Shown here piece by piece: positions 16,042-23,887 of a stretch of 64,000 nt of DNA. The position numbers were made by a program, and so were the translations under genes. How positions within the stretch are numbered: the stretch's first letter is position 1; every line of letters begins with the position of its first letter. This DNA comes from Kiritimatiellia bacterium (GTDB lineage Bacteria; Verrucomicrobiota; Kiritimatiellia; RFP12; JAAYLN01): NCBI GenBank assembly GCA_017962605.1, contig JAGCUY010000007.1, positions 752 to 64,751 of the forward strand, in the 5' to 3' direction. A model generated the notes under the pieces. That model saw nothing but the letters and a program-made list of their open reading frames with translations. It made no database searches and was not told where the DNA came from.

Positions 16042-16060
16042 CCATCAATGACACAAATGA

Positions 16061-16140
16061 AAAACTCCGTGCCTCCGTGTCTCCGTGCGAACCCCAACTT
16101 TCGCATTCTCTGCGCAACCCTCTGCGCTCTCTGCGTTGAA
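16061..16140 (+). repeat. Related (ctc[ct]gtg)n element at the 5' end of the SGNH-hydrolase ORF
   Basis: 'ctccgtgcctccgtgtctccgtgcg...tctctgcgcaaccctctgcgctctctgcg' has arms similar to the 54631/55331 elements but in direct orientation. In-frame translation 'ILCATLCALCVE' resembles 'NLCGSVSLCEE'. Confidence 0.4.
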
Positions 16141-17274
16141 ATGAACTCCCTCGCTTCCACCTCGGCCTCTCCTCCTGCGTCGCAGAACGACATCGCAAAG
16201 TGGGATCCGAACATGGCGGCGGACAGCGCCGCCGTTGACGAAAACGGCGTAAGGTGGATCGACGGAACGGACCTGCCACTCGAGGGGCGAGTCTTCGACG
16301 ACGTGGAGCACTACTTCGACCGGCTTCCCGCGAACGTCTCGACGAACGTCAACGCCGGCGTCAGGAACATGAAGCACCACACGGCAGGGATGCAATTCCG
16401 GTTCCTGACTGACTCGAAGAAGCTCCGCTTCAGGTGGACGCCGTGGAACGCCGGGCGCCTCGCGATGGGCCACATGCCTTCGACGGGCGTGAGCGGACTC
16501 GACATCTACCGCTGGAACGCCGGCAATGGACGCTGGGTCCATGTGAAATGCTTCCGTCTGCCCGATGAGGCGAAGGAGGACTTCTCCTTCGACCTCGACT
16601 GGAAATACGGCGGGCCGTGCCTCGTCTATCTGCCGCTCTACAATGGGCTGCGCTCGTTCTCGCTCGGCATCGACATTTCGGCCACTGTGGAGCCGCTACC
16701 GTCGCGCGCGAGCGGCGTTGAAAAGCCGGTGGTCTTCTACGGGACGTCCATAACCCAGGGTGCGTGCGCCTCGCGTCCGGGGATGTCGTTCGTGAACATC
16801 GTCGGACGCGACCTCGACGTCCCCGTCGTGAACCTCGGCTTCGCCGGTTGCGGACGGATGGAACTTGAAATGAGCGAGCATCTGGCGCGCATCGACGCAA
16901 GCTGCTACGTCCTGGACTGCCTTTGGAACATGGGAAGCGCGGCCGGCGGAAGCCGCCCCGGCCGCAACGTCGAGGAGAACTACGAGCCGTTCATCCGCAA
17001 CCTCCGCTCCAAGCGTCCCGGCGTTCCGATAGTCATGGCGGGCCAGTGCAACGTCCGCAACGACGAGCCAAACGCCAAGGAGCGGTTCATCAAGGCGCTT
17101 TATGACCGGCTCGTGGCTGAGGGCTGGGGCGACCTCTTCTTCCTCCCCGGCTCCGGGATGTTCGCCGACGACTCCGAGGGCTCCGTTGATGGGTGCCACC
17201 CGAACGACTACGGCATGATGTCGCTCGCACGGGCCTACGGCACCGCAGTCAAAGCGGCCCTTGGATTGAAGTAA
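16141..17274 (+). CDS. SGNH/GDSL-family hydrolase (carbohydrate esterase-like) with N-terminal accessory domain
   Basis: SGNH block I 'VVFYGTSITQGACAS' and downstream D/H blocks ('DGCHPND') are present. The start is uncertain: ATG at 16141, or upstream in-frame codons that would span a repeat element. Confidence 0.6.
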   Translation: MNSLASTSASPPASQNDIAKWDPNMAADSAAVDENGVRWIDGTDLPLEGRVFDDVEHYFDRLPANVSTNVNAGVRNMKHHTAGMQFRFLTDSKKLRFRWTPWNAGRLAMGHMPSTGVSGLDIYRWNAGNGRWVHVKCFRLPDEAKEDFSFDLDWKYGGPCLVYLPLYNGLRSFSLGIDISATVEPLPSRASGVEKPVVFYGTSITQGACASRPGMSFVNIVGRDLDVPVVNLGFAGCGRMELEMSEHLARIDASCYVLDCLWNMGSAAGGSRPGRNVEENYEPFIRNLRSKRPGVPIVMAGQCNVRNDEPNAKERFIKALYDRLVAEGWGDLFFLPGSGMFADDSEGSVDGCHPNDYGMMSLARAYGTAVKAALGLK

Positions 17275-17299
17275 CCGAAGGTCAGACTTGCGGAAAGGA

Positions 17300-17400
17300 T
17301 AACCGAAAATGAAAACCAAGGCAATCGTATTTGAGGATGGCGGCTGAATCCGCCTCTCCGATGTCGCGCTCCAGCCGTGCAAGCGGCTGCAGTGGCTACT
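17300..17400 (+). pseudogene. 5' remnant of a zinc-type alcohol dehydrogenase gene (MKTKAIVFEDGG*, then degenerate)
   Basis: An RBS 'ggaaagga' plus ATG at 17300 encodes 'MKTKAIVFEDGG' and then a stop. The following ~60 nt remain ~80% identical to 18277..18350 (out of frame). Confidence 0.4.
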
Positions 17401-17995
17401 GCGCGGTGACTATCTGCATCAGGTCGAAGAACATCAGGCGCGTGTGCAACGGCCCGTCGCCAGCGATGTTCCGATATTGCCGCTCCTGCTCCTCGGTGCT
17501 GAACATGAAACTGAACCCATTGCTGAGATAGTATTCGCAAGGCGCAGGTTCGTTATAAGCATCCACGACAAGGTAGCGGCATCCCGTCTTGTTGTCATCG
17601 TCAATGAACCAACTCTTGATGCTGTCCATCAGTTCGGTTCCGACATGCTTGCGCATGAATTTGCTGTTGACGCCAAGTCGTCCAATCAACACCGCAGGAT
17701 AAATCATGTCGCGCTTTTGCTGTGGAACGTCCTTGCCAATGCGCTTCCTCCTCGCGTTTGGGAGGTGGTTTGTGAAGATGCTTGCGTTGGAAACGGTAAA
17801 TGCGCAGACAATCTCCTTGGGATTCGCAATTTCAAGGAAAGCGTAAGTTTTCCCCATCAACTGGCGAGCATAGCCAAGATAGTCAACGGAGAAGAACTCG
17901 TCGAGATCCTTGTTCCCGCAACTGAAGGGTTCACATGCGGAGATGATGCGCTCGGAGAGCGGAACGCGTATGCACTTGTCTTTCAAAAAGGCCAT
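17396..17995 (-). CDS. GNAT-family N-acetyltransferase, toxin-like (TacT/AtaT-type candidate)
   Basis: Acetyl-CoA motif A 'IGRLGVNSKFMRKHVGTELM' is present. ATG at 17995 was confirmed. It overlaps the small upstream ORF by 13 nt and has lower G+C than its surroundings. Confidence 0.55.
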   Translation of the reverse strand: MAFLKDKCIRVPLSERIISACEPFSCGNKDLDEFFSVDYLGYARQLMGKTYAFLEIANPKEIVCAFTVSNASIFTNHLPNARRKRIGKDVPQQKRDMIYPAVLIGRLGVNSKFMRKHVGTELMDSIKSWFIDDDNKTGCRYLVVDAYNEPAPCEYYLSNGFSFMFSTEEQERQYRNIAGDGPLHTRLMFFDLMQIVTAQ

Positions 17996-18177
17996 TTGCC
18001 CGCTTTCTTCAATGCTTCTATGCGGCGGTCGTTGTTGACCTCGAAGTCGCGCCATTCGCGCCGCACGGACGCAAAACCAACGCACCCGCGCCGACGGGCG
18101 TTCTTTTCCGCATCACGGACGAACCGCCGGGCGGCTTCTCCAGACAGGACGGGTATGTTGCTTATTGCGAGTGCCAT
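17983..18177 (-). CDS. Small upstream partner ORF (possible antitoxin of the GNAT module)
   Basis: 64 aa, basic, with ATG confirmed. It overlaps the start of the GNAT gene in the typical antitoxin-toxin arrangement. No recognised family. Confidence 0.3.
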   Translation of the reverse strand: MALAISNIPVLSGEAARRFVRDAEKNARRRGCVGFASVRREWRDFEVNNDRRIEALKKAGKWPF

Positions 18178-18276
18178 TTCTTGTTAGCCTTTCTTCAAGA
18201 TTGCGTCAAGAATTATACATAATCCAGCAGAATGATGCAAGTTCCCTTTGCGCTCAAACGGCAAAAATCACCCATC

Positions 18277-18900
18277 AAAACCAAGGCAATCGTTTTTGAG
18301 GAGGGTGGCGGAGTCCGCCGATCAGATGTCGCACTCCCGCCATGCGGGCCGACGCAGGTCCGCGTGCGGACGCTTTTCTCGTTCGTCTCCCCCGGCACTG
18401 AACTGAGGATGCTGGGCGGCCACTACGGCGCGGAGGGGCGCTTCCCGTTCGTTCCTGGCTACGCAAGCATCGGCCGCGTCGAGGAGGTCGGTGCGGAGGC
18501 GAAGGGCTTCCGCGTGGGCGATCTCATCTCGTGCCGCAACTCGGTCTCGTTCGCCAACTGCACCGCCCTCTACGGCGGACACGCCGGGGCGCACGTCTTC
18601 GAGACAGTCGGCGAGGATGTGCCGGTACTGCTTCCGCCCGTCGCGGACGACGAGGCGCTGCGCTACGCCGTGGCGGAGTTCGCCGCAATCCCGCTGCGTG
18701 GCGTCGATGCCGCCGCGCCACGTCCAGGCGAGAACTGCTGCGTCGTCGGCCAAGGTGCGATCGGGCTTCTCTCGGCGCGTCTCGTTCTGCGCCTCCTGTG
18801 TTTGCGCCGCGCCGCCGAGGCCATCTGCGAAATAGACTCCGAGACGCCCATCATCATGGAGACGAATCTCCTCGACCATTCCGAGGCATATCCGAATACG
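18277..18900 (+). pseudogene. Truncated zinc-type (MDR) alcohol dehydrogenase fragment lacking its start codon and C-terminal half
   Basis: Encodes 'KTKAIVFEEGGGV...PGTELRMLGGHYG...GYASIGRVEEVG' (GroES-like domain) and 'CCVVGQGAIGLLSARL' (GxGxxG). There is no ATG and the Rossmann domain is truncated. Confidence 0.5.
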
Positions 18901-19107
18901 GCTGGGACTGGACCTGCCACGCCTTCCGCGAGTCGATCGTGTGGGATGTCGAAAAAGCGGGAAATGATTGGAAGGGGATTAGCCCATCCGTATCGATTGC
19001 GAGGGCGGCCGGGCCACGCGGGGAGTTATCCGAGAAAAATTAATCCGATTTTTCTCGGATGTTTCTTGCGCGATGAAGTTGATTGTGGTATATTCATTTG
19101 CGAGAAA

Positions 19108-20265
19108 ATGAGCAAATTGAAAAACAACGACTTCCCCTTCCATTTTGGCACTGTGGCATCGGGTGACTTCTTCTATGACCGTTCCGATGACGCCGTGAAA
19201 CTGCACGACCTCGTGGCGGGAGGCCAGAACGTCGTTCTTTACGCGCCGCGACGCTACGGGAAATCGTCACTGGCTTTGAAGGTCGCCGAGTCTTGGAAGA
19301 AGGACGGCTTCATCTGCATATACTTCGACTTGATGCGCGTCGAATCCATGGATGAGTTTATCCGGTCATACGCCAACGCCGCCATTGCCGCAGAGGGACG
19401 GACCGAGCATGGCATTAGGGCAATCCTCGCCGCATTGGCGTCGATTCATCCGAAAATCACAATTGGCGACGATGGCAAGCCTGCAATTGAAATCGACTTT
19501 GGCCGGAAAGGACCAACGGCAAAATCGCTTGAGGAAGTCCTGTCTCTGCCTGAAACTCTTTCTTCGTCCAAGCGGCGAATCATAGTCATTTTCGACGAGT
19601 TCCAGGAAGTGGCAACCCTCTCCCGCCGTCTTCCCGCAGAGCGGATTTTCAGGAGTGTAATCCAGCAGCAAAGGAAAACCCGCTATCTTTTCCTGGGCAG
19701 CAAGACGCACCTGATGAGAAGGATGTTCAACGACAGGGCGCGTCCATTCTACAATTCAGCCTCCACCATACTGCTGCCGAAGCCGCCGGAGGAAGAAAGC
19801 GCGGCCTTTCTCAAGGCACGTTTTCTCTCATCTGGGATGGACATTTCCGACGATGTGGTTGCCGGGATAATCCGCGCTTCGGACAACATCCCCTATTACA
19901 TCCAAGCCATAGCGCTCCAGATTTGGCTCCTGGCGAAAAGGCGCGGGGCGGCCAAGCCTGCCGCGGCCGATGTGCCAGCGGCCATGGACGAGCTAGTCGA
20001 AATACACCGAGATGTCTATGAGGCGATTGCCGAGAGATTGAGCGAGACATCGCGCAGGCTTCTTTCCTCTATAGCCCAAGAGCCGACCATCCGTTTCGAT
20101 GCCGACTACAGGGCGCGCCATTCCCTTCCAGGAACGACGACAATAGGCAGCGCGCTTACCAAACTTGTCAATGACGGACTCGTGGAAAGGGACGCGCAAG
20201 GCTGCCACATCGCAGATCCCCTCCATGCGCGATACCTGCGCACTTCAGCAGCAAGGATTCTATAA
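19108..20265 (+). CDS. AAA-superfamily ATPase (Arch_ATPase/DUF234-like ATP-binding protein)
   Basis: The track fuses it in frame to the ADH fragment upstream. It has its own RBS-less ATG at 19108 after an AT-rich promoter-like stretch 'ttgattgtggtatattcatttgcgagaaaATG'. Walker A 'APRRYGKSSL' and Walker B 'IIVIFDEFQ' are present. Confidence 0.55.
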   Translation: MSKLKNNDFPFHFGTVASGDFFYDRSDDAVKLHDLVAGGQNVVLYAPRRYGKSSLALKVAESWKKDGFICIYFDLMRVESMDEFIRSYANAAIAAEGRTEHGIRAILAALASIHPKITIGDDGKPAIEIDFGRKGPTAKSLEEVLSLPETLSSSKRRIIVIFDEFQEVATLSRRLPAERIFRSVIQQQRKTRYLFLGSKTHLMRRMFNDRARPFYNSASTILLPKPPEEESAAFLKARFLSSGMDISDDVVAGIIRASDNIPYYIQAIALQIWLLAKRRGAAKPAAADVPAAMDELVEIHRDVYEAIAERLSETSRRLLSSIAQEPTIRFDADYRARHSLPGTTTIGSALTKLVNDGLVERDAQGCHIADPLHARYLRTSAARIL

Positions 20266-20267
20266 AA

Positions 20268-21020
20268 ATGATTGAAGATTGTTTCAACTTCTCGGCTAAC
20301 GGCAACCCTTGGCGCGGGAGGCGCGTTGCCTTTTTCGGCGATTCGATTACGGATCCCGCCCATATCGGCTGCTCTGAAAACTACTGGGGCGTGCTTGAAC
20401 GCGCAATCGGCATTGTCCCCCTCGTCTATGGCGTAAATGGCCACCAGTGGTGCGGCATCCCCGGCCAAATAGAGGCCTTCTCCGCCGAAAATGCCGAAGG
20501 CCCTGACGCCATCTTCGTTTTTGCCGGAACCAACGACTTCAATTCCAGCATCCCGCTTGGCGAATGGTTCTCGGTCAGCGATGTCGTCGTCAGGCGCAGC
20601 AAGGGCGACACTCCCGTGCGCCGCCGGGATTTCATTTTCGACGACTCCACCCTGCGCGGCCGCATCAACATCGCGATGCGCATGCTTCAGGACCGCTGGC
20701 CCGGCGCCCCGAAATTCCTGCTCACGCCAATTCACCGCGGCTATGCGGAGTTCTCTTCGGACAACGTCCAGCCCGACGAAACCCATTCCAATGAACTGGG
20801 CCTTTTCATCGGCGACTACGTCGATGTCGTTAAGGAGGCCGGCGGCATCTGGTCGGCGACGGTCATAGACCTCTTCTCGGAATCGGGGCTGTTTCCGCTT
20901 CTGCCATCCCACGCCAAGTTCTTCAACCAGACGGGCACCGACCGCCTCCATCCATCTGACGCGGGGCACAGGCGCATCGCCGCCGCGATTCTCCGCCGCC
21001 TGGGCTTCCCCGCTTTGTAA
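20268..21020 (+). CDS. SGNH/GDSL hydrolase family protein
   Basis: 'VAFFGDSITD' (block I), 'FAGTNDF' (block III) and 'DRLHPSDAGH' (block V) are present. Confidence 0.7.
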   Translation: MIEDCFNFSANGNPWRGRRVAFFGDSITDPAHIGCSENYWGVLERAIGIVPLVYGVNGHQWCGIPGQIEAFSAENAEGPDAIFVFAGTNDFNSSIPLGEWFSVSDVVVRRSKGDTPVRRRDFIFDDSTLRGRINIAMRMLQDRWPGAPKFLLTPIHRGYAEFSSDNVQPDETHSNELGLFIGDYVDVVKEAGGIWSATVIDLFSESGLFPLLPSHAKFFNQTGTDRLHPSDAGHRRIAAAILRRLGFPAL

Positions 21021-21095
21021 AGCGCCAGCGCGGCGTCTGCGTTGCAATTTGCGCGGCAATCCTGTAAACTGGATTGCTGTAAAATTTCCACATCC

Positions 21096-22574
21096 ATGCA
21101 GTTTCCGACCGCCATATTCGCCTGCTTTTTCGCCCTTGTCCTTGGGCTGCACTGGACGCTTCCCGAGCGGGGCGTCACGCGCAAGTGGGCCTTGCTCGCG
21201 GCAAGCGTAGCCTTCTACGCCTGGTGGAGTTGGAAGTTCGCGCTCCTCACGCTGGCCTCCGCGGCGCTCAACCATGGCGCGGCCCTTCTGATAGCCTCCG
21301 TGGAGGACGCGAGGAAGCGCCGCGCGCGCCTCGTCGTGGCCGTCGCCGCCAACCTGCTCCTTCTCGCATTCTTCAAGTATTCCGGATTCCTGTTGACCCA
21401 GGTGTTCCACCCGCTTGCCGTCATCTGCTTCCGGCAGTTCGGCGCAATCGAGAACCTGCTTGACTTCGAGGACAGGATACTCCCCTTTGTCGAAAGCATC
21501 ATCCTGCCAATCGGCATATCGTTCTACACCTTCCAGGCAATCGCGTATGTCGCGGACGTTGCCTCTGGCAAGGCGCGTCCGGCAGCGTCGCTGCTCGACT
21601 TCGCGAACTACCTCGCCTTCTTCCCGAAACTCTGCGCCGGCCCAATCGTGCGCCCCTCCGCGCTCCTGCCGCAAATGGAGTCGCTTCCCGCGCGCTCAAC
21701 CGAAGTCGACACCGGCCGCGCCGCAACGCTTGTCCTTGGTGGGCTCTTCAAGAAGGTCGTCGTGGCGAACTGGATCGCACAGCACCTGGCCGACCCCGTC
21801 TTCACCGACCCCGAGTCATTCGGCGCCGCCGACGCCCTCCTCGGCATCTACGGATACACGATCCAGATCTACTGCGACTTCTCCGCCTATTCCGACATCG
21901 CCACGGGCTGCGCGCTCCTCTTGGGCTTCAAGTTCCCCGACAACTTCCGCGCCCCATACGTGGCGAGCTCGCTCCAGGACTTCTGGCGTCGCTGGCACAT
22001 CACTCTCTCGTCCTGGCTACGCGACTACCTCTACATCCCCATGGGCGGGTCGCGCTGCGCCAAGTGGAAGGTCCACCGGAACCTCATAGTCACCATGCTC
22101 CTCGGCGGGCTGTGGCACGGGGCCGGATGGTCATACATACTCTGGGGCGCCATCCATGGCGTCGGCCAGGTTCTCGAACGTCCCTTCAACAAGAAACGCG
22201 CCGCAGACGCGCCGCCAGCTCCTCGCGCGGTCACGCTGCTTCGCGGCATCGTAACATTCCACGTCGTGGCCTTCGCGTGGATATTTTTCCGCGCGGGCGC
22301 AGTGGACGCCGAGGGGCTGACCACGGTCTCGGGCATCCTCTCCGACCTCGGGCACTGGAGCGAACCGGCCACGCTCCTCACGCCAATGGCCATCGCCATG
22401 CTCCTCATCGGCTTCGCCCTGCAGGCGCTCGACGGCGACACGCCGCGCCGCCTCTGGGCCGCCTTCGGGCGCCTGCACCCCGTGGCGCAGGGGCTCGTGG
22501 CCGCCATACTCCTTACCGTCGTCCTCGGACTCGGCCCCGCCGGGGTCGCGCCATTCATCTACTTCCAATTCTAG
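21096..22574 (+). CDS. MBOAT-family membrane O-acyltransferase (AlgI/DltB/PatA-like)
   Basis: 'WRRWHITLSSWLRDYLYIPMGGSR' matches the AlgI/DltB signature with its conserved His. It is multi-TM. ATG at 21096 was confirmed. Confidence 0.8.
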   Translation: MQFPTAIFACFFALVLGLHWTLPERGVTRKWALLAASVAFYAWWSWKFALLTLASAALNHGAALLIASVEDARKRRARLVVAVAANLLLLAFFKYSGFLLTQVFHPLAVICFRQFGAIENLLDFEDRILPFVESIILPIGISFYTFQAIAYVADVASGKARPAASLLDFANYLAFFPKLCAGPIVRPSALLPQMESLPARSTEVDTGRAATLVLGGLFKKVVVANWIAQHLADPVFTDPESFGAADALLGIYGYTIQIYCDFSAYSDIATGCALLLGFKFPDNFRAPYVASSLQDFWRRWHITLSSWLRDYLYIPMGGSRCAKWKVHRNLIVTMLLGGLWHGAGWSYILWGAIHGVGQVLERPFNKKRAADAPPAPRAVTLLRGIVTFHVVAFAWIFFRAGAVDAEGLTTVSGILSDLGHWSEPATLLTPMAIAMLLIGFALQALDGDTPRRLWAAFGRLHPVAQGLVAAILLTVVLGLGPAGVAPFIYFQF

Positions 22575-22580
22575 AAACCC

Positions 22581-22823
22581 ATGCAGCGGACATCTCAAAA
22601 AAGAATTGCCGGAACGCTCCTGGCCGTGGCCGCATTCTACGCGGCGGCGCTCCTCCTGCGTGCGCCGGCGCTTCTTCGAGATGCCGAAAACCTGCCGCAT
22701 GAATCCCCGCGCCGCGCACTGTGCCTCGCCACCATGAAGCCGATCGCGGCATTTTCCCACACCATCCGCCTCGACGCCATTTGCGTCGCGGTGGAAAAAT
22801 TCGAAAGGAAAAACCTGGAATGA
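22581..22823 (+). CDS. Small membrane protein between MBOAT and SGNH partner (hypothetical)
   Basis: 80 aa with one hydrophobic helix. Its position is analogous to small accessory proteins in polysaccharide acetylation operons. It is not an acyl-carrier protein. Confidence 0.3.
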   Translation: MQRTSQKRIAGTLLAVAAFYAAALLLRAPALLRDAENLPHESPRRALCLATMKPIAAFSHTIRLDAICVAVEKFERKNLE

Positions 22824-23572
22824 ACAAGGCAAAATCCAACACCGCCCTCGCCGCCGCGCTGTTCGCGGCATGCTCACTGGCTGGCGCAACGGCCCTTGCC
22901 GCTCCTGCGGAGCAGGCCGAAGAGGTCAAAATCCCGAAGCCCGACACGCCTGTCCTCATGATTGGCGACTCCATGATGCGCATCCTCGGCCGTCAGATGG
23001 AAAAGGCATTCAAGAAGGCCGACGTCCAGCCCGCCGTCGCCTTTTCGTCGCTCGGCTCTGGTCTCGGGCGGCCCGAGGCCTTTGACTGGACGGCGAAGAT
23101 AAAAGAGCTCCTCGAAACGGAAAAGCCGAAGACCGTGTTCGTCTGCCTCGGCACCAACGACCGCCAGGCGCTCGAACTAGAAAACGCCGTCATCAGGTAC
23201 GAGACCGCCGACGTCTGGCGCGAAACCTACGGGAAGCTTATCGGTGGCTTGATGGATCAGCTGCTCGAAGGAGGCGTGACGCGCGTGATATGGATGCTCC
23301 TCCCCGACATGAAGGACTCCGTGGCGCAGGAACACGCGCAGCTCGTGAACGAAATCGTCGGCGAGCAGGCGCAGGTGGAGAGCCGCAAGGACCGCGTAAC
23401 GCTCCTCGACCTCGCGCCGGTCCTCTCCCGCCACCCCGGCAAGTATTCGCAGTATATGATGTCGCCGACGGGCACCTCCCTCTCCGTGCGCGACCCCGAC
23501 GGCGTACACCTCTCCGTTGACGGCGGCAAGCTCATCGCGGAAACCGTCCTGAAGAAATACTGGCGGAAATAA
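22820..23572 (+). CDS. Periplasmic SGNH-fold O-acetyltransferase/esterase partner of MBOAT (AlgJ/AlgX/PatB-like)
   Basis: ATG at 22820 with RBS 'ggaaaggaaaaa'. Signal peptide 'ALAAALFAACSLAGATALA'. 'VLMIGDSMM' (GDS block) and 'VCLGTNDR' are present. Confidence 0.55.
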   Translation: MNKAKSNTALAAALFAACSLAGATALAAPAEQAEEVKIPKPDTPVLMIGDSMMRILGRQMEKAFKKADVQPAVAFSSLGSGLGRPEAFDWTAKIKELLETEKPKTVFVCLGTNDRQALELENAVIRYETADVWRETYGKLIGGLMDQLLEGGVTRVIWMLLPDMKDSVAQEHAQLVNEIVGEQAQVESRKDRVTLLDLAPVLSRHPGKYSQYMMSPTGTSLSVRDPDGVHLSVDGGKLIAETVLKKYWRK

Positions 23573-23735: not shown

Positions 23736-23887
23736 TACGCGTGAGCGCCAGACATCCTGTGTCTCCGTGCCTATGTGTGAGATTGTCTGCCGTACGGTAG
23801 CACCATGACGAATCCTGTCTGAAAAGAATAGATCATGTCACAAACAGCCCAACAACATCGTAGTTGTGACCACATTTCATCAAATGC

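Follow-up and report, generated by a model that had tools for sequence, protein, structure and literature searches.

A 64,000-nt stretch of the genome of a Kiritimatiellia bacterium (GCA_017962605.1, contig JAGCUY010000007.1, positions 752-64,751 of the forward strand), referred to here as the window, contains a small two-gene cassette, made up of a GNAT acetyltransferase gene and a 64-codon open reading frame (ORF), which lies between two diverged copies of the beginning of a dead alcohol dehydrogenase (adh) gene. The reading that we prefer, to which we give about an even chance, is that this addiction-type cassette was joined to its present flanks by the recombination of two alleles, without any transposase or integrase, and that the resulting composite then spread. 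The features on which the argument draws are the following, with the evidence for each in brackets.

16048-17274, plus strand: GxDLY/SGNH esterase gene, the upstream neighbour of the dehydrogenase remnant (Pfam).
17292-17299, plus strand: Shine-Dalgarno sequence GGAAAGGA of the former dehydrogenase gene (read from the sequence).
17309-17392, plus strand: 5' remnant of the dehydrogenase gene, copy A (direct repeat, alignment, weak profile match, statistics).
17396-17995, minus strand: GNAT acetyltransferase of 199 aa, a putative toxin (Pfam, PDB searches, AlphaFold2 (AF2) and Foldseek, family alignment).
17983-18177, minus strand: partner ORF of 64 aa, a putative antitoxin (conserved pairing with GNAT in other genomes).
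18178-18275, no strand assigned: AT-rich upstream region of the cassette, putatively its promoter region (BLAST end points against contigs L017-L019; G+C 0.465).
18274-18795, plus strand: dehydrogenase fragment, copy B (Pfam, NCBIfam, 53-58% identity to full-length orthologues, profile score of 216 bits).
18796-18907, no strand assigned: segment of unassigned origin joined to copy B (no dehydrogenase C-terminal similarity; within the haplotype-identical block).
17168-18909, no strand assigned: haplotype-identical block of 1,742 nt (0/1742 differences against contigs L021/L022).
19027-19061, plus strand: perfect 15-bp hairpin (terminator-like scan; RNA fold of -30 kcal/mol, z -4.5).
19108-20265, plus strand: P-loop ATPase gene of 385 aa, ATPase_2 / AAA_14-like (PF01637, E 3.8e-09; contigs L017-L019; composition).

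The cassette measures 881 nt (17393-18273) and contains nothing besides the two genes and the region upstream of them. A preliminary description of this DNA, made from its letters alone, had placed a GNAT gene of lower G+C on the opposite strand between the repeats, and the composition agrees (0.49-0.50 for the GNAT gene against 0.62-0.66 for the flanks, with copy B of the dehydrogenase at 0.70); the 13-nt overlap that it reported between the GNAT start and the small upstream ORF, both on the minus strand, likewise follows from the coordinates, and the GNAT stop codon stands 3 nt away from the end of copy A. At least 10 contigs from rumen metagenomes, which come from differing samples and assemblers, have the same order at 98-100% identity, and this recurrence in independent contigs rules out an assembly artefact, so that the arrangement can be taken as real. 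The exact GNAT protein is present on 14 contigs, all of which, among the matches listed, have the arrangement of the window.

Signs of a conventional mobile element were sought around the cassette. No transposase or integrase was found within several kb of it (ORF list, Pfam, and related contigs), the repeat search returned no terminal inverted repeats or attC-like structure around it, and IMG/VR contained no relative that would indicate a phage origin. A scan of the window against Rfam gave no RNA family, the scan for sigma-70 promoters gave no match, and exact-protein look-ups of the esterase and the ATPase returned no record.

The two copies of the gene start form a direct repeat of 84 nt (17309-17392 and 18274-18357) with 80% identity and a spacing of 965, as found by the repeat search and in agreement with MAFFT, which upholds the earlier claim that a homology of about 80% resumes some 960 bp downstream. 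When the searched region was shuffled 100 times, the best ungapped match never exceeded 44, as against the 67/84 matches here, and the repeat represents two versions of the first ~25 codons of a medium-chain dehydrogenase/reductase (MDR) gene. Copy A is still joined to the native ribosome-binding site (RBS) and ATG of the dead gene (17292-17311, plus strand; ATG at 17309, 34 nt past the esterase stop) and reads MKTKAIVFEDGG*IRLSDVALQPC..., with an in-frame TGA at 17345-17347, and it therefore encodes just the short peptide that the preliminary description had noted. Copy B, on the other side of the cassette, is joined to the remaining 5' half of the gene.

The identity of the copies is 83% over the first 72 nt, and their longest identical run is 17 nt. 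Past codon 24 it is codon positions 1 and 2 that differ, and the conserved C-G-P of the dehydrogenase family is missing from copy A, so that the real homology is probably about 72-75 nt long and secure to about 17380. Of the 12 differences within the first 72 nt, five leave the amino acid unchanged and 8 are at the third position of a codon (P 0.019); at position 16, as read from the N-termini of the orthologues, copy A retains the consensus hydrophobic residue and copy B has Arg, and the dehydrogenase profile also matches copy A weakly, over its positions 3-27. By this codon pattern, the copies look like diverged (homeologous) alleles of a gene start, and not like a fresh tandem duplication.

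The simplest competing account, which we consider unlikely, is that a single insertion into an intact adh gene duplicated nt 3-84 in place, and that the copies diverged to 80-83% identity only later, as copy A decayed and copy B, translated from a new ATG at 18232, was kept under selection up to the loss of its 3' half. The stop codon within copy A is in keeping with such a history, and the ATG, which is in frame, could have sustained the translation of copy B. On the other hand, neither the third-position bias nor the retention by copy A of consensus-like sequence where copy B has departed from it is expected from the neutral decay of copy A.

The fate of the dehydrogenase gene is clear from copy B, which is the N-terminal half of an MDR dehydrogenase (Pfam ADH_N, E 3.7e-07; TIGR01202, E 1.5e-20). 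Against a profile built from three full-length orthologues (contigs L011, L012, and L023), it spans positions 3-174 of 351 with 216 bits (18274-18795), and the same profile found in 17250-19150 copy B, weakly copy A, and nothing more. The fragment stays in frame up to the GxGxxG motif and is lost beyond it, and it can be inferred from its 172 codons without a stop or frameshift, together with the profile score, that its decay cannot have been long. The C-terminal half of the gene is absent from all 64 kb of the window (tblastn), in line with the C-terminal truncation first described, and the neighbouring Gfo/Idh/MocA gene does not occur elsewhere in the window.

A complete alcohol dehydrogenase of this type has GroES-like and Rossmann parts (~350 aa) and its own start codon, which copy B lacks. 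The term "start-less", used of copy B in the preliminary description, is right in that the codon homologous to the start is ATC (18274) in place of ATG, and needs correction in that the in-frame ATG at 18232 lies in the upstream region of the cassette. A surviving 3' end was considered in 18796-19107, where a Smith-Waterman score of 37 was obtained in another frame, and was discarded, as the profile search did not confirm it. The possibility of a genuinely short ADH family, which the preliminary description had itself raised, was also rejected: the short "ADH" proteins are contig ends or, in one case, lie on a contig whose name points to a nanopore assembly. The dehydrogenase is a truncated pseudogene, of which codons 3-174 of ~350 are left without a start codon of their own, and the 3' side of adh was broken by a separate, independent event. 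The nearest full-length relatives (345-351 aa, from a Spartobacteria metagenome-assembled genome and from uncultured bacteria) are 53-58% identical, and no intact adh above 53-60% identity was found in 185,579 GTDB species genomes, the JGI metagenomes, or a collection of 5.8 billion proteins.

The population pattern provides the second line of evidence. Two contigs from JGI/NCBI (L021 and L022) match the window at 98% identity along up to 15.5 kb, and effectively two haplotypes can be told apart, which differ at 151/6730 positions (2.2%) in the flanking genes. Between 17168 and 18909, there are 0/1742 differences where ~39 would be expected; the divergence is 7.6% just to the left of this block and 3.5% just to its right, where the first difference is at 18910. 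The block covers the 3' end of the esterase gene, copy A, the cassette, copy B, and ~115 nt beyond, and the absence of differences where ~39 are expected indicates that it passed recently between lineages by recombination.

In the esterase gene (16048-17167), L021 differs from the window at 47/465 positions (10%) and L022 at 41/1120 (3.7%), and these two contigs differ from each other to the left of 17031 and are identical from 17089 on. Judged by these alignments, the locus is a mosaic of recombination tracts.

A further allele, found in contigs L017-L019 from at least two samples, lacks copy B altogether. These contigs are 99% identical to 17808-18275 and 97% identical to 19018-19153, and carry 85 unrelated nt in the place of 18276-19017, so that the cassette abuts the ATPase gene. 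The last base common to the window and to this allele is 18275 (...TCACCCAT), which is where copy B begins, and 18276-18907, i.e., copy B and the segment attached to it, has no counterpart in these contigs. The heptamer GGACCTG is common to 18908-18914 of the window and to the start of the L017 spacer, and it coincides with the right end of the identical block.

L018 ends (616-635) in the Illumina adapter GACGTGTGCTCTTCCGATCT, at an end point common with L017; given the identical end point, one set of reads, assembled by two pipelines, probably underlies both contigs.

What can be seen directly is the anatomy of the locus, its homologies, the alternative allele, and the pattern in the population; the order and mechanism of the recombination events are what we infer. 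In one lineage, the cassette would have replaced most of the pseudogene, leaving 84 nt of copy A and adjoining the ATPase gene, as in the L017-type contigs, and another allele would have retained the 5' half of the dehydrogenase gene. A homologous crossover at one end and an illegitimate join (...CCCAT|C) at the opposite end would then have united the two alleles, and the composite block of adh copy A, cassette, and adh copy B would subsequently have moved between strains by ordinary homologous recombination.

Formally, such a history would be a homology-facilitated illegitimate recombination, in which foreign DNA is integrated through the combination of one homologous anchor with one illegitimate join (PMC3240628) and which is described for naturally competent bacteria and for E. 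coli conjugation. If the join fell inside the anchored gene, a process of the kind outlined there would be expected to give the 5' end of the recipient, the cassette, and then the 5' end of the donor with the rest of the gene. In the present locus, the join has at most 2 nt of microhomology (AT), and its assignment to this mechanism is a presumption.

Several observations weigh against the recombination of two alleles. There is no empty site, the closest intact dehydrogenase being 53-60% identical, and the direction and the number of the events cannot be proved because of this. The C at 18276 comes from neither parental sequence, unless the N-terminus of allele B was longer, and the third-position bias hinges on stopping at nt 72, given that over 84 nt P is 0.17. 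The L017-type contigs are at most 689 nt long and do not cover the left flank, and the similarity between their 85-nt spacer and 18906-19017 is suggestive at most, with 9/1000 shuffles reaching its score and one control window equalling it. Finally, flanking repeats are present in 2 of ~9 contexts in which the cassette family was seen, and ~7 others are without them.

For the in-place duplication, the L017-type allele would have to be a later deletion, which must have started exactly at the junction of the cassette and copy B, a second coincidence at one nucleotide. The low identity of the repeats, the codon-position pattern, and this allele together make the in-place duplication fit less well than the two-allele model. 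The preliminary description, which had the cassette insert into a disrupted adh gene, was therefore correct in placing it between two adh copies; a single insertion and duplication in place is too simple, given the third-position differences, the L017-type allele without copy B, the identical block, and the break on the 3' side of adh.

The closest published pattern is insertion with long target duplication, reportedly described by Nobusato et al. in 2000 for restriction-modification (R-M) gene complexes. R-M cassettes insert with target duplications of 46-423 bp and without mobility genes (PMC2853133, PMC3874152), and the repeats of the published cases have an identity of 93-100% (Furuta et al. 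2010, PMC2853133). The present cassette resembles them in being an addiction-type pair with flanking direct repeats and no transposase or integrase, and, measured against the description of Furuta et al., it has both genes within an insert of 881 nt (<20 kb), no mobility gene, and repeats longer than 30 bp (72-84 nt here). It differs from them in that the cargo is toxin-antitoxin-like and not R-M, in that it is the 5' end of a protein-coding gene that is repeated, in the identity of the repeats (80% for 84 nt, 83% for 72 nt; 80-85% when the second genome described below is included), and in the lack of an empty site, given that all close relatives carry the same insertion and no adh in the genomes, metagenomes, and proteins searched exceeds 53-60% identity. 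This resemblance (an addiction pair, an insert below 20 kb, a repeat above 30 bp, and no mobility genes) speaks for the in-place duplication, and the gap between 93-100% and 80-83% identity speaks against it.

The pattern recurs in a second genome (contigs L015 and L016; L015 1656-3363), where a cassette whose GNAT protein is 86% identical lies between a metallophosphoesterase gene and the gene of a protein of 505-526 aa for which an N-terminal signal sequence is predicted. Here, inner direct repeats of 165 nt with 94% identity immediately flank the cassette, and outer direct repeats of 163 nt with 85% identity copy the beginning of the downstream gene, namely a 27-nt leader with the RBS, the start codon (GTG in one copy, ATG in the other), and the first 45 codons. 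The nested repeats suggest a successive capture of flanking DNA. This second instance favours an in-place duplication, and the difference between its inner and outer repeats (94% vs. 85%), which implies at least two events there, counts against it. The long, diverged duplication in the window is best described as a variant of the R-M pattern.

On another contig of the family (L005), a perfect 61-nt direct repeat (1260-1320 and 1532-1592) lies just past the GNAT stop codon, with both copies on one side of the cassette.

Repeats of this kind could also be the ends of a once larger element, which integrated site-specifically and brought a replacement for the 5' end of adh, the copies being attL and attR and the 965-bp unit a remnant after the loss of the recombinase. 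Among elements that replace gene ends, the prophages e14 and 21 carry an alternative 3' end of icd, and such elements show differences like those between the copies, homeologous and mostly synonymous; the in-frame ATG at 18232 provided from the side of the cassette, the site-specific integrase beside one homologue, and the large low-G+C island 3.3 kb downstream would also suit it. This account is nevertheless very improbable, given that there is no integrase between or adjoining the repeats, no identical core longer than the 17-nt run, and, in L017-L019, the same end of the cassette (...CCCAT) joined to an unrelated sequence, and given that the repeats of L015 are nested, once more without a recombinase.

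The Pfam matches of the GNAT protein of the cassette are below threshold. A single-sequence phmmer search against the PDB returned toxins of toxin-antitoxin (TA) systems only (TacT3 6g96, AtaT2 7f37, AtaT, and KacT; E 3e-4 and weaker), and a profile of 20 homologues placed 15 toxin chains first (E 2.4e-10 to 1.7e-3), followed by other acetyltransferases. The AF2 model has a predicted local distance difference test score (pLDDT) of 83, and its first 38 Foldseek matches were all AtaT, TacT1-3, KacT, AtaT2, or GmvT (E 3e-10 to 2e-7; template modelling score 0.55-0.78). The motifs that are kept include the N-terminal F-x-C-G...L..FF, GRLGV...G in the coenzyme A (CoA)-binding region, and an invariant Tyr156 before N-G-F, opposite which AtaT has its FY in the alignment; the loop that binds pyrophosphate is atypical, and a low-confidence prediction adds a further basic loop at residues ~78-100. 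The profile and the predicted fold make the protein a distant relative of the aminoacyl-tRNA-acetylating toxins TacT, AtaT, KacT, and GmvT, in a family of >2,700 clusters at 90% identity.

The partner ORF is tied to the GNAT gene across distant genomes. In other genomes and in unrelated contexts, GNAT homologues have the same 64-aa ORF ahead of them, with the 13-nt overlap; the overlap is found in L003-L010, L016, L027, L033, and L038, and the Bacteroidota show a gap of 5-9 nt instead. The pair is kept from 86% down to 46% GNAT identity, in Planctomycetes-Verrucomicrobia-Chlamydiae (PVC)-like, Clostridia-labelled, and Bacteroidota genomes, and includes partner homologues of 51-56 aa on replicons of Segatella copri and Parabacteroides distasonis (GNAT 60% and 46% identical); two pair-bearing replicons are listed as plasmids, one of them with an adjoining integrase. 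A profile search of 1.84 billion representatives returned 275 partner clusters at 50% identity, mostly of 35-95 aa, and a few longer members are joined to GNAT sequence, apparently as frameshift read-throughs, which also link both genes. From this conservation, the GNAT gene and the small ORF are taken to be a conserved two-gene module, and the overlapping, co-oriented, patchily distributed pair, kept together across distant genomes, has the generic attributes of a type II TA system.

The family identity of the partner is a different matter. Its N-terminus (MALAISNIPVLSGEAA.RF) is invariant across the family, and its AF2 model (pLDDT 68) has this invariant stretch disordered, followed by two helices; the pattern of a strand and two helices resembles a ribbon-helix-helix (RHH) fold by eye alone. 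No Pfam match was obtained for 16 members of the family at E up to 10, no PDB match in sequence searches, and no significant match in the fold search of the model, and hhalign gave a probability of 0.2% against a genuine DUF1778 antitoxin (plasmid CP057940). By these comparisons, the partner appears to be a new, undescribed family, neither DUF1778 nor DUF4065.

The best relatives of the GNAT protein, by profile and by structure, are the toxins of the GNAT/DUF1778 TA systems (TacAT, AtaRT, KacAT, ItaRT, and GmvAT). The toxin fold is the same; common to both are F-x-C-G...L..F near the N-terminus, the GRL(A/G)V strand, and, towards the C-terminus, the Tyr before N-G-F, and the small gene comes first and is overlapped by the GNAT gene in the same order. 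On the other hand, the partner here is of 51-64 aa and is unlike the DUF1778 (RHH) domain of their antitoxins, and the GNAT protein, whose role as a toxin is a prediction, is ~30 aa longer, with the basic insertion at ~78-100, a different CoA-binding loop motif, and a sequence identity to the toxins of 15-19%.

A precedent for GNAT toxins that swap antitoxin families is provided by VcaAT, a DUF4065-GNAT system (Bikmetov et al. 2022, PMC9177977); the partner in the window is not DUF4065, matches no Pfam family, and is far shorter. The same authors describe bicistronic GNAT loci outside the true TA clade, with short upstream ORFs that have no predictable DNA-binding domain (PMC9177977), and the present cassette fits this description. 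It may be regarded as a variant of the GNAT TA-like modules with a new partner family.

In a TA system of this kind, the GNAT protein would acetylate the amino group of a charged tRNA with acetyl-CoA, with Tyr156 as the general acid; the small protein would neutralise the GNAT protein by binding to it, and would probably also act as a repressor of the operon. We lean somewhat towards a toxin-antitoxin pair on these grounds, and both toxicity and neutralisation are predicted from homology and modelling; given that the small ORF matches no known antitoxin type, the term itself has the standing of a prediction. The designation "toxin-antitoxin-like" in the preliminary description is hence well founded for the GNAT protein, by the PDB profile and Foldseek, and for the conserved pairing, and less so for the small ORF.

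Four points count against a TA pair. The CoA-binding motif departs from Q/RxxGxG/A and is partly kept as ..H-[IV]-G-[ST]; the partner is without a recognisable DNA-binding or antitoxin domain in the Pfam, PDB, fold, and hhalign searches; the Bacteroidales pair stands in capsule-synthesis operons, in the orientation of the operon; and Bikmetov et al. leave GNAT/short-ORF pairs of this sort unvalidated as TA systems (PMC9177977).

Another reading, possible although on balance doubtful, is one in which the pair is an ordinary acetyltransferase with an accessory or regulatory protein, e.g., for the modification of polysaccharides or the cell surface, and its position in the wreck of adh is incidental. 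In the Bacteroidales, the pair occupies capsule loci, between the initiating glycosyl-phosphate transferase and an epimerase/dehydrogenase and in the same orientation, the Segatella pair adjoins glycosyltransferases, and the neighbourhood in the window has SGNH esterases and an MBOAT acyltransferase. The sub-threshold Pfam matches and the partner without an antitoxin domain would suit this reading, and such GNAT proteins, it has been warned, may serve other functions (PMC9177977). Nevertheless, the nearest solved relatives, by sequence and by fold, are solely tRNA-acetylating toxins, down to the F-x-C-G...L motif, and the 13-nt overlap, the 51-64-aa partner, the low G+C, and the patchy distribution across phyla, with a pair near an integrase and TA-like DUF2442/DUF4160 genes, also speak against it. 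Capsule loci are, moreover, variable and exchanged regions in which addiction modules are to be expected.

In the Bacteroidales contigs themselves (L041-L050), a 51-aa ORF and the GNAT gene lie in capsule-polysaccharide loci, from Bac_transf to the epimerase/UDP-glucose dehydrogenase genes and with a NusG-like (UpxY-type) gene upstream; at least 24 contigs encode an identical GNAT protein, and the genes further upstream and downstream vary. A "GNAT-XAT" pair of B. fragilis in the literature was considered as a match and turned out to be another system. A Piscinibacter plasmid (L052, NZ_CP136337; 977-1758) has a GNAT protein of 27% identity, which is preceded by a lysine/alanine-rich ORF of 74 aa, unlike DUF1778 and unlike the partner family, between IS21 and Tn3 fragments, and it may be another GNAT with a different small partner.

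On the right side of the cassette, the annotation is wrong. Gene callers fuse the dehydrogenase fragment and the ATPase into one protein of 676-677 aa (ADH_N plus ATPase_2) in every assembly, and the ORF at 18232-20265 (677 codons) is a read-through from the pseudogene into a separate ATPase gene. The ATPase_2 domain begins 22 aa after an ATG at 19108, the G+C shifts near 18800 (0.52-0.57 in the ATPase gene), the 15-bp hairpin, with a 5-nt loop and followed by GTTTCTT, stands 47 nt before this ATG and inside the spurious ORF, and the L017-L019 contigs have the upstream region and start of the ATPase gene without any dehydrogenase sequence ahead of it. For these reasons the two are separate genes, and on this the preliminary description, which gave the ATPase its own ATG at 19108, was borne out. 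The hairpin sequence is also found in L017-L019, and it is a candidate terminator or operator of the resident DNA on the side of the ATPase.

In the second haplotype, the hairpin has substitutions at 19027, 19034, and 19041. The 106 codons between the dehydrogenase and the start of the ATPase are open and in phase, for which the chance is ~0.004, and are open in the second haplotype too; this in-phase open frame is probably a coincidence. PADLOC gave no defence match for the GNAT protein or its partner, and for the ATPase a weak match to mad8 (E 0.0015).

The wider neighbourhood is also of interest. Upstream of the cassette are a DUF5696 protein and the GxDLY esterase, and downstream of the ATPase gene, in 20268-23572, are a GDSL lipase, an ORF called an MBOAT-family acyltransferase in related contigs, and a DUF459/SGNH protein; this looks like a polysaccharide (de)acetylation cluster with foreign genes wedged in. 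From 23600 to 44000, 3.3 kb downstream, lies a region of ~20 kb with low G+C (0.46-0.58), whose genes include an AbiEi-like regulator, a C39-like peptidase, two dynamin-family GTPases, a PrsW protease, an AAA_14/DUF4143 ATPase, and two Hsp70/MreB-like ATPases, one with Sel1 repeats and one with LGFP repeats. L022 stops matching the window at 23819, where it has a KilA-N gene instead, and the region looks like a strain-variable defence or conflict island.

A more far-reaching generalisation, which we hold to be decidedly unlikely, is that GNAT/small-protein cassettes are self-sufficient mobile addiction modules that enter the 5' ends of genes through a recombination route such as has been proposed for R-M genes and leave target duplications of 70-170 bp, that they carry pieces of earlier targets between hosts, and that the partner represents a new antitoxin family for tRNA-acetylating toxins. 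The carriage of pieces of earlier targets would account for the nested repeats of L015.

The movement of chromosomal TA modules without a transposon, phage, or integron is poorly understood, and the R-M signature of insertion with long target duplication is known, although its mechanism is not. The present locus brings together a TA-like cassette and an R-M-type signature, with a second, independent example in another genome, and the pair defined here is sizeable and uncharacterised, its toxin-like half related to the tRNA-acetylating toxins and its partner new. Current views are not overturned by this finding. The locus is probably a scar that records the way in which such selfish cassettes get into genomes with no transposase, and the allelic variants present in the rumen, with copy B, without copy B, and with the recently crossed block, could help to reconstruct the events.

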